From: Escherichia coli | GTDB taxonomy: Bacteria > Pseudomonadota > Gammaproteobacteria > Enterobacterales > Enterobacteriaceae | Assembly (NCBI RefSeq): GCF_044324785.1 | Contig: NZ_CP172127.1 | Length of the DNA stretch: 64,000 bases | Strand: one strand, 5' to 3' | Part shown: piece by piece, positions 34,796-35,712 of the stretch | Numbering within the stretch: the first letter of the stretch is position 1 | Layout of the letters: each line of letters starts with the position of its first letter | The notes under the pieces: generated by a model | Databases searched by the model: none | Told to the model about the DNA's origin: nothing | What the model saw: the letters and a program-made list of their open reading frames with translations, nothing else | Made by a program: the position numbers and the translations under genes

Positions 34796-35712
34796 GAATC
34801 CCTCTGCAACAAAAACAAACAGTCTCCGGCGTGTGCTTTTTGGCTGCGCCAGAACGATACCTTTACGCCGGAGTGGTAGTTTGTTGAGGTTTAGGGAGTT
34901 TCAGGCTGTACGCAGTACAGACTGCCTGCGAAGCAGGAGTGTCTCCGGGGCTTCTTGCCCCCCTCGGTATCGATCTTTTTCTCCTTTACTCTTAGCTGAC
35001 AGCGGCCCCAAAGGGCATGTCAGACGGCGGAAATATGGCGCAGGCCAGAACTGGCGCGGCTTGTGGCGGTGAGTTGTGCGGCGTCACTTTGCTTTTTCGC
35101 TGGCGCGACCAAAGTGACGCCTCGTCTGGTGCAGGGGGTAAACGTTACGTTTCTGGTGCAGGGTGACGGTCACGCGGCAGCAAAGCCTGACGGCAATGCA
35201 GGCCGCAGCCCGTCAATGTAAGGCGCTGGTTGTCAGCAGAAGATAAAACCCGGCAAAGCCAGAGTGTCAGCCCGTAAAGCCGGGTATCTGGTGCAGTGAT
35301 GGTGTATATGTACGTCAGTCTCAGATGCAGGTATTTTTGCATCCCCGGCGTTTTCAGAGATCAACGCCGGTAAAGGATGCCATGCTGGCGAAGCCAGGCG
35401 CTTCTTTCAGACGTGAAGCGACAAAGGGACTGCCCGGAGGCAGTTTGTTGCAGGCGGGAGACTGCGCCATTATTTCTGGTGCAGGAAGGAAAAACTGTTT
35501 CCGGGTTTAAAAGATTGTTTGCTTACCTGGTGACGGAAAAACTGTCGCGCTTCGCTTGTCTTCTCCCGGCGCGGCTGCCAGCAAAAGCAGGCAGCGCGCC
35601 GGGAGAGTCTGGTTTTACTGTAACAATGCGCCTGACGGTTCAGCCATCAGGATCGGCGTTTATGCATGAGTCTTCCGGTACGGTTGCCCCGATCATCGAT
35701 GTATCTGGACGG

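Follow-up and report, generated by a model that had tools for sequence, protein, structure and literature searches.

A conserved, decayed leader beside an MpsA-like relaxase pseudogene in an Escherichia coli genomic island: a candidate origin of transfer with small RNA motifs

Among relaxases that resemble tyrosine recombinases, a requirement for mobilization together with nicking at the transfer origin (oriT) is found in the literature for MpsA, MobK and TcpM only. In the genomic island SGI1, the oriT is a 125-bp GC-rich segment composed of inverted repeats, and the core of a small RNA (sRNA), sgm-sRNA, lies between it and the relaxase gene mpsA (Kiss 2019, PMC6414798; Nagy 2021, PMC9299015). 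The sgm-sRNA is essential for transfer and is cut from a primary RNA of 650–700 nt that runs in the mpsA direction and carries a GC-rich, terminator-like inverted repeat near its 5′ end (PMC9299015). On the plasmid pIGRK, the oriT of MobK consists of repeats in inverted and in direct orientation together with four copies of a short motif, all upstream of the relaxase gene (PMC8152469). Here, we describe a non-coding stretch of about 0.9 kb in an E. coli chromosome, inside a genomic island at a tRNA-Asn gene with yeeO and cbl adjoining. The stretch lies between a pseudogene for a tyrosine-recombinase-like protein of the MpsA family (PF12835, Integrase_1; 34214-34795, minus strand), annotated in RefSeq as 'phage integrase N-terminal domain-containing protein, frameshifted', and a gene on the same strand, immediately upstream, for a 62-aa Ner/SfsB-like winged helix-turn-helix (HTH) protein (PF13693; 35713-35901). 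Coordinates refer to the whole 64,000-nt stretch of DNA that was analysed, hereafter the window. E. coli strain N3 matches it at 99.9%.

Relaxases of the MOB_M class are reported to be mostly chromosomal and the commonest in chromosomes, to be often annotated as integrases and to have an integrase adjoining in 96% of cases; they occur in integrative and conjugative elements (ICEs) with an MPF_G mating pair formation system or alone in integrative mobilizable elements (bioRxiv 10.64898/2026.01.13.699239). Both contexts, beside an integrase in an island and beside a conjugation gene, are represented among the loci that we checked. In a 2023 classification of islands, PF12835 is the 'INT_DTR_like' signature and was chosen because of MpsA (PMC10484663).

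At a probability that we put slightly better than even, roughly 0.55, the stretch is the conserved, decayed oriT/sRNA leader of a relaxase of the MpsA/MOB_M kind belonging to an integrative mobilizable element. We favour an oriT because the neighbouring protein is homologous to MpsA and because the layout matches that of SGI1. Read along the minus strand, the Ner-like HTH gene is followed by a GC-rich stem-loop (hairpin 2), the remnant of a STAXI RNA unit, a GC-rich block of about 140 bp, the EFASI RNA motif and the relaxase pseudogene. Counted from the pseudogene start, hairpin 2 lies at -767 to -811, the GC-rich block at -285 to -420 and EFASI at -56 to -183. An inverted-repeat-rich block is thus found in the first intergenic region upstream of a relaxase gene, which is the placement expected of the oriT of a MOB_M relaxase. 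For comparison, in an SGI1 fragment (L064) that we retrieved with the published oriT sequence, oriT_SGI1 occupies -304 to -428 relative to the start of mpsA.

The two loci are alike in having a relaxase-like protein in PF12835, an inverted-repeat GC-rich block about 300–430 nt upstream of its gene, a structured small RNA between this block and the gene, and, on the gene strand, a GC-rich, terminator-like hairpin 650–800 nt upstream; each is part of a genomic island that has a separate integrase of its own. They differ in that the sgm-sRNA falls outside EFASI, in that SGI1 has a separate MpsB whereas the protein here has a fused N-terminal SAM-like domain, and in that SGI1 has no counterpart of the polar 9-mer array described below; function has been shown experimentally for SGI1 only. 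The likeness to pIGRK is that an oriT built from similar repeat types stands directly upstream of a gene for a tyrosine-recombinase-like relaxase, whereas MobK is unrelated in sequence and its element is a plasmid rather than an island and much smaller.

According to this proposal, the GC-rich block would be the oriT, bound and nicked by the integrase-like relaxase, and the short repeats CTGG[T/C]GCAG around it (hereafter 9-mers) would be sites, specific to the lineage, at which the relaxase or one of its partners in the relaxosome binds. EFASI would correspond to the sgm-sRNA that is essential for transfer in SGI1 and would be processed from a long primary transcript of the minus strand, with hairpin 2 controlling how much of this transcript there is. 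Because the relaxase gene is a pseudogene in the window, the site could act there only in trans.

The family of the neighbouring protein was characterized from intact relatives of the pseudogene. These are 294 aa long and match PF12835 at 207 bits (207.5 in locus L003) and PF12834 at 126 bits, and the catalytic Arg, Lys, His-x-x-Arg, His and Tyr are conserved in 12 of them. MpsA of SGI1 itself matches PF12835 at 43.5 bits against a cut-off of 23, and its alignment with the family of the pseudogene (hhalign probability 90%, E = 1.5e-6, 27% identity) includes shared GLR, GTKGGRxR and LGHG motifs; the H-x-x-R catalytic residues conserved in the family are aligned with a different string in MpsA. 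PF12835 and the MpsA alignment together suggest that the family belongs to MOB_M. A protein search for informative names returned only 'integrase domain-containing' or 'DNA-binding protein'. All these PF12835 scores are those of relatives or of MpsA; the window copy is a pseudogene without an intact catalytic set, 77% identical to its counterpart in locus L002 over residues 1-168. By tblastn and blastn against L002, it has suffered two internal deletions, of about 185 nt and about 86-99 nt, and a frameshift.

The preliminary description of this stretch, prepared from the sequence alone, had presented it as GC-rich and non-coding with two long hairpins and four direct repeats, and these observations hold. 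Its G+C content is 52–61%. On neither strand does any frame stay open across the whole conserved block in over 6 of the 27 relatives compared. A 52-aa 'hypothetical protein' that RefSeq places at 35063-35221 was considered as a gene and rejected, since it has no Pfam match and its frame is not conserved (open in at most 6 of the 27). Both hairpins are real: the arms of hairpin 1 (35080-35091 and 35110-35121) and those of hairpin 2 (35562-35573 and 35595-35606) each pair perfectly over 12 bp, and the stem of hairpin 2 extends to about 17 pairs. Compared with shuffled sequences, hairpin 1 folds with z = -3.9 to -4.6 and hairpin 2 with z = -5.9 to -8.1. The repeat TCTGGTGCAG occurs four times on the plus strand, at 35125-35134, 35152-35161, 35287-35296 and 35475-35484 (repeats 1 to 4); the first two had been placed correctly, at 35125 and 35152, and the other two, given as 35286 and 35474, were one base off. 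Allowing at most one mismatch, the window holds 16 matches to TCTGGTGCAG against 3.2 expected, a number reached in none of 100 shuffles. That description had also named conservation of the motif and covariation of the stems as checks, and both are found: the repeats are kept at fixed positions in relatives with 45–83% nucleotide identity, hairpin 1 shows compensatory changes at 5 pairs and the hairpin 2 stems covary. What it did not contain is the EFASI match, the STAXI-like unit, the relaxase-gene neighbour and the fact that the repeat is part of a larger, oriented array.

To describe conservation along the leader, 32 upstream regions were aligned and mapped onto the window. The conserved islands are EFASI, the element TGTCAGAC, both arms of hairpin 1, repeat 1 and the almost invariant segment from repeat 2 through 35215, while conservation is weaker in the STAXI remnant, repeat 4 and hairpin 2. 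The element TGTCAGAC (35018-35025), which lies in the gap from EFASI to the first repeats, hardly varies among the 32 relatives; it might serve as a promoter element, as a site of processing or as the region of the nick. It is followed by two degenerate 9-mers, ATGGCGCAG (35035-35043) and CTGGCGCGG (35051-35059), which are the first copies on the plus strand and whose homologous columns hold exact 9-mers in most relatives (such as L003, L007 and L008).

The GC-rich block (about 60% G+C) comprises hairpin 1, flanked on either side by 9-mers, and a further inverted repeat that is imperfect. Hairpin 1 (35080-35121), formed by the arms GCGTCACTTTG and CAAAGTGACGC and an inner stem, is the candidate oriT core. 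Its pairs are almost all Watson–Crick in 27 variants, it folds equally well on both strands, and its stem GCGTCACTT persists in Serratia and Photorhabdus lineages (48% protein identity). Because Watson–Crick pairing is kept, the sequence itself is kept across lineages and the two strands are equal, hairpin 1 fits a putative recognition hairpin acting at the DNA level. A second copy of it, which might serve as a partner recombination site, was not found within the 64 kb. Next come repeats 1 and 2 (35125-35161), the first of them starting 4 nt past hairpin 1. Repeat 2 shows no variation in 8 of 8 sequences, and its conservation is 80–90% or more when all 32 are compared. Beyond them, the imperfect long inverted repeat GGTGACGGTCACGCGGCAGCAAAGCCTGACGGCAATGCAGGCCGCAGCCCGTCA (35162-35215) is the most conserved block of the region. 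No covariation was shown in its core, which is too invariant for the test, and RNA structure there was rejected, being predicted on both strands with a fold no better than that of shuffled sequences.

Repeat 3 is present as CTGG[C/T]GCAG in L003, L005 and L007 and has been lost in L002, L004 and L006. In strain 1EC187 (L062 3800-3810), a large deletion has its breakpoint exactly at the 5′ edge of repeat 3 (window 35286/35287), and in another E. coli strain, ML775 (L063 4057/4058), a second large deletion ends just after the near-copy CTGGTGACG (window 35536/35537).

The four repeats belong to an array that extends well beyond the stretch. The window contains 15 copies of CTGG[T/C]GCAG against 1.2 expected, and 10 of them lie between 33466 and 35484; EFASI has six of these on its left, all in the minus strand, and four on its right, all in the plus strand. 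The gene-strand copies begin with CTGGCGCAG (34844-34852, minus strand), which abuts the 3′ end of EFASI and forms one edge of the polarity switch, and continue at 34325, 34131, 33688, 33495 and 33466, in and beyond the pseudogene. In 33 loci, which are related so that the counts are not independent events, the zone from -58 to -1000 upstream of the gene start holds no gene-strand and 107 opposite-strand 9-mers, the zone from -57 to the gene end holds 122 and 0, and the 800 nt beyond the gene hold 98 and 1. The gene and the 0.8 kb beyond it thus give 220:1 in favour of the gene strand, whereas flanking DNA has a density of about 0.1 copies per kb per strand. Such absolute polarity across lineages of 45–83% nucleotide identity is striking. 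The array is confined to about 2.5 kb, and the switch to 34852-35035, that is, to EFASI plus 57 nt. In relatives, the upstream sites fall two between EFASI and hairpin 1, two just past hairpin 1 and two further upstream.

Within the gene, the 9-mers are under selection at the level of DNA, imposed even on codon choice. In the close lineage, 87 of 101 L-A/V-Q tripeptides are written exactly as CTGG[C/T]GCAG, whereas typical E. coli codon usage would lead one to expect about 11%. Together with this excess, the argument for DNA-level selection is that some in-gene copies fall in another reading frame and that the distant lineage, which has no in-gene array, has no LAQ at those places. C is all but absent from the position 5′ of the motif (2 of 263 distinct instances in L002-L037), which gives the form D-CTGG-Y-GCAG and means that the Dcm site CCTGG is avoided; this may reflect functional avoidance of methylation or the decay of methylated copies. 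In distant lineages, CGTT[C/G]AA or ACGT[C/T]AA takes the place of the 9-mer at the same positions. Because a different repeat occupies these positions, the sites behave like binding sites of a protein, and the replacement suggests that this protein is one of the element and not one of the host. For this role the relaxase is the first candidate, since its gene is the sole protein gene found beside the region in both lineages. We know of no described counterpart of the polar array, and no polar k-mer was found in SGI1. Inversion of segments between opposed 9-mers, as in a shufflon, was considered and not seen in any of the 33 loci.

A polar repeat with a switch point might also be a host signal, as are Chi, recognized by RecBCD, and KOPS, recognized by FtsK, which would protect or orient the local DNA. 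Those signals are distributed genome-wide, are strand-polar with a reversal point and are selected inside coding sequence, and the array shares with them the absolute polarity, the single point of reversal and the selection within a gene; CTGGTG, moreover, overlaps Chi (GCTGGTGG). In contrast to them, the array is local, specific to the element and to the lineage, and of another sequence. The motif differs from Chi at two or more positions, no true Chi GCTGGTGG occurs between 24206 and 48612, and distant lineages, whose hosts presumably share RecBCD and FtsK specificity, use a different repeat and lack the in-gene array. With the restriction to about 2.5 kb added, we regard a host-level signal as extremely unlikely.

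The catalytic residues and the deletions in this region also bear on the activity of the neighbouring protein, which might be a Xer-like site-specific recombinase rather than a relaxase. The region would then be its site, with hairpin 1 as the core and the 9-mers as accessory half-sites, comparable to TnpI/IRS of Tn4430 or to crs/Rsd, and the system would serve in resolving multimers of the island after its excision, or in inverting or deleting whatever DNA lies between repeats. The family retains Arg, Lys, His-x-x-Arg, His and Tyr and has weak matches to XerC/XerD, repeats of 9–10 bp have the size of a recombinase half-site, and the opposed arms resemble the arm-type sites of an attP. The larger deletion of the pseudogene (185 nt missing, 194 nt from copy to copy) removed exactly the DNA between the direct 9-mers at L002 2042 and 2236 and left a single hybrid 9-mer at 34325-34333 (L002 2042-2244), and one large deletion, as noted above, ends at repeat 3. 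Such repeat-bounded deletions are equally explained by slippage between short repeats, because the second deletion of the pseudogene used the unrelated 7-nt microhomology CACCTGC. The IRS of Tn4430 measures about 116 bp and joins an inverted-repeat core, with a crossover spacer of 6-8 bp, to directly repeated copies of an accessory motif. As there, a gene for a small tyrosine recombinase is preceded here by an inverted-repeat core and direct repeats; unlike there, the spacer of hairpin 1 is 18-20 nt, 9-mers do not occur as a close inverted pair with 6-8 bp between them, and the repeats are scattered across more than 2 kb of DNA that takes in the gene. Nor is inversion of the segment seen in any of the 33 loci. 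Since the island already has a P4-like integrase and MpsA, the sole characterized member of the family, acts in transfer, we consider a Xer-like system rather unlikely.

Between the pseudogene and the GC-rich block, the minus strand carries the EFASI motif (Rfam RF02957; 34851-34978, 56-183 nt upstream of the pseudogene start), with 100.8 bits against a gathering score of 51.2 (E = 2e-20) and coverage of model positions 1-133 of 133. EFASI was found at the equivalent place in every relative scanned. According to the Rfam text quoted in PMC12370729, the name stands for 'Enterobacteriaceae, Frequently Around STAXI and Integrases', STAXI precedes the motif by several hundred bases and integrase genes follow it, and the function of the motif is unknown. 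The window shows the same context, with an integrase-type gene 56 nt downstream and a STAXI-like unit about 400 nt upstream, and the order STAXI, EFASI, integrase-type gene recurs in L003, L005, L009, L040, L047, L052 and L058. At the motif level, the copy in the window differs in nothing from the family; the proposed link of EFASI to a relaxase and to sgm-sRNA comes from the present analysis.

STAXI (RF01728; Weinberg 2010, PMC2864571) gave no Rfam match in the window at E <= 10. Homologous columns in relatives and the predicted fold nevertheless delimit a degenerate single unit at 35383-35447 on the minus strand, with an ACUGCC-UCCG-GGCAGU hairpin. The homologous single units score 38.9 bits in L003 and 36.6 in L005, with L009 within this range, against a gathering score of 40.5, and the UNCG-capped hairpin of STAXI units shows compensatory changes among relatives. 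As the family is defined by the gathering score and at least two tandem pseudoknot units, the segment appears to be a decayed STAXI remnant and not a member. It agrees with STAXI in position, strand, the UNCG-capped hairpin and the conserved stretch that follows it, and the C4 antisense RNA nearby fits the published association; it differs in that a single decayed unit stands here, whereas ICE-borne relatives have full three-unit copies on both sides of the gene. In L040, L047 and L052, the three loci of a distant lineage for which both sides were covered by sequence, the relaxase-like gene lies between two full-length STAXI copies of 98-135 bits in the same orientation (3090-3244 and 5113-5268 in L052), with EFASI just upstream. 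The published motif descriptions that were consulted make no mention of a gene bracketed by two STAXI copies.

Hairpin 2 (35562-35606) lies directly downstream of the HTH gene. In 11 variants it has a fixed base, TCTCCCG...CGGGAGA, and a freely covarying middle, and in 10 of the 11 it is more stable on the gene strand, the G.U pairs of which are A.C mismatches on the other strand. Because of these G.U pairs, hairpin 2 is best read as acting at the RNA level on the minus strand. It is not an intrinsic terminator of the plus strand, as no T-run adjoins the stem on either strand (GTCTGG precedes TTTT on the plus strand), and a terminator scan of its surroundings found only a 6-pair sub-stem at 35598-35613.

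The preliminary description had instead taken hairpin 2 for a plus-strand terminator and envisaged a structured non-coding RNA (ncRNA) running through the repeats and ending near 35615. It was right in kind to expect a structured ncRNA or protein-binding sites, since the stretch includes EFASI and its repeats keep fixed positions in relatives; it erred on the strand and in the particulars. That all four repeats are on the plus strand and that TTTT follows hairpin 2 after 7 nt would suit a plus-strand transcript, and if such a transcript were divergent, each arm of the array would have its 9-mers on the RNA-like strand. Against this, EFASI and the STAXI remnant are minus-strand features, the pairing of hairpin 2 favours the same strand, the T-run is detached from the stem, the plus strand of the stretch has no match to any Rfam family and the core shows no covariation. 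A scan for sigma-70 promoters detected no promoter-like site on either strand. We therefore consider a plus-strand RNA of this kind very unlikely.

A further alternative is that the whole interval is a leader at the RNA level only, a long minus-strand 5′ untranslated region or sRNA precursor in which hairpin 2, STAXI and EFASI would regulate the gene that follows, with the repeats and hairpin 1 likewise acting as elements of the RNA. The G.U asymmetry of hairpin 2 agrees with this, as does the presence of two curated RNA motifs on the minus strand, STAXI RNAs having been detected by RNA-seq in Pectobacterium (PMC4710047). The repeats are harder to accommodate, since a single transcript would read CUGCACCAG upstream and CUGGCGCAG in the gene, which is not one motif, and pairing between them would have a central A.C mismatch. 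Pairing of leader RNA with coding RNA through the 9-mers was itself considered and rejected on account of this mismatch and of the wrong base preference. Hairpin 1 makes no use of G.U pairs, and the scarcity of C before the motif (2 of 263) suggests recognition of DNA, though decay of methylated C would give the same pattern. Since RNA and oriT co-exist in SGI1, a leader RNA would complement an oriT rather than replace it; as a full explanation, we judge it unlikely.

Several points weigh against the oriT interpretation. The GC-rich block has no sequence similarity to oriT_SGI1, none being detectable in the non-coding DNA as a whole, and no EFASI match was found in SGI1 (L064), so that the parallel appears to be one of layout only. 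The nic site, transfer and binding are predictions for this family, its assignment to MOB_M comes from PF12835 and the MpsA alignment, the protein has an N-terminal SAM-like domain of its own and no MpsB, and the neighbouring gene is a pseudogene in the window. Finally, a plain oriT model leaves the reversal of the array at EFASI and its extension through the gene and about 0.8 kb beyond unexplained, and relaxosome binding accounts for the upstream 9-mers only.

A broader proposal, which we put forward tentatively as a possibility, would treat D-CTGG-Y-GCAG as a new oriented cis-signal of a tyrosine-recombinase-like relaxase, with two opposed arrays meeting at EFASI and the oriT, and with EFASI, and perhaps STAXI, as counterparts of sgm-sRNA. 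The arrays would run about 1 kb to one side and about 1.7 kb to the other, shaping amino acids and codons of the relaxase, and could provide directional loading, guidance, a roadblock or multiple cleavage sites for the relaxase or a translocase. Their logic would be comparable to that of KOPS at dif or of Ter sites, but private to a mobile element. The EFASI motif and this kind of relaxase family are already known; the polar 9-mer array is unexplained and possibly new. With its counts of 0:107 and 220:1 on the two sides, it could reveal how tyrosine-recombinase-like relaxases organize the DNA around oriT.

If the oriT reading is correct, a backbone that is very common in islands of E. coli, Salmonella, Citrobacter and Klebsiella has an oriT and an integrase-like relaxase of its own, which would account for how such islands move. 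This backbone consists of the P4-like integrase, the 'integrase domain protein', EFASI, the HTH gene and the C4 RNA, and its cargo includes RHS and type VI secretion system (T6SS) effectors, dnd, Avs and toxin–antitoxin modules. EFASI, an orphan motif, would gain a testable role in conjugative mobilization by analogy with sgm-sRNA, and should EFASI, and perhaps STAXI, be sgm-sRNA counterparts, orphan Rfam motifs would acquire a function.

Of the complete E. coli genomes, 600 out of 5426 contain the region, and a search with the neighbouring protein, taking one genome per species, gave 53 loci in two groups. The close lineage, with 73–100% protein identity, includes Escherichia, Salmonella, Citrobacter, Klebsiella, Kluyvera, Brenneria and others; in its loci with context checked, the gene lies beside a P4-like integrase, mostly tail to tail, and the cargo varies among RHS/T6SS genes, dnd, Avs3a and toxin–antitoxin modules. 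The distant lineage, at about 48–54% identity, includes Serratia, Erwinia, Pantoea, Photorhabdus and Morganella, and in the one locus of this group whose neighbours were scanned, Serratia L052, the gene adjoins a TraG_N conjugation gene.

Toxin–antitoxin genes (HigA, MazEF, RelE/HTH, Gp49) have inserted into the leader in L006 (3474-3734), L007 (3522-4112) and L008 (3179-3839) and also in L065, L066 and L017, at one of two places: from the conserved core to repeat 3, or from repeat 4 to hairpin 2. Insertions are thus either tolerated or attracted by the leader at two spots. Cassette-like insertion bounded by two repeats was considered for L006, L007 and L008 and rejected, as the inserted genes have no flanking motif.

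In the window, the left end of the island is the tRNA-Asn gene (31352-31424), followed by the P4-like integrase gene on the plus strand (31589-32850). Because this integrase gene is frameshifted, the island is probably immobile in this strain. On the far side of the HTH gene, the minus strand encodes a 153-aa protein of unknown function (35898-36359) and a C4-type antisense RNA with an a1/b1/isrK-like target (36413-36598; C4 at 62.2 bits against a gathering score of 45), and the plus strand then carries an RHS core gene (36881-41062, 1393-aa protein), which is followed by a gene for a tetratricopeptide repeat (TPR) protein. The a1/b1 target and the isrK-like element, both slightly under their gathering scores, lie upstream of the gene for the 153-aa protein and the Ner-like HTH gene, and the arrangement resembles an antisense-controlled operon of the P1 immI type reading towards the non-coding stretch; it is found likewise in L002, L003, L024 and L046.

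Between the P4-like integrase gene and the relaxase pseudogene lies 1.36 kb of AT-rich DNA (32851-34213; 31–46% G+C) without annotation, which might be a replication origin of the excised island. It contains a direct repeat of 131 nt (33052-33182 and 33280-33410, 73% identity) with 'GAAAACCTATCAATA...TTTTCACGGAA' units and a CCCTTT-rich stretch at about 33540-33650, and its counterpart in L009 has iteron-like units and the DnaA-box-like sequence TTATCCACC.

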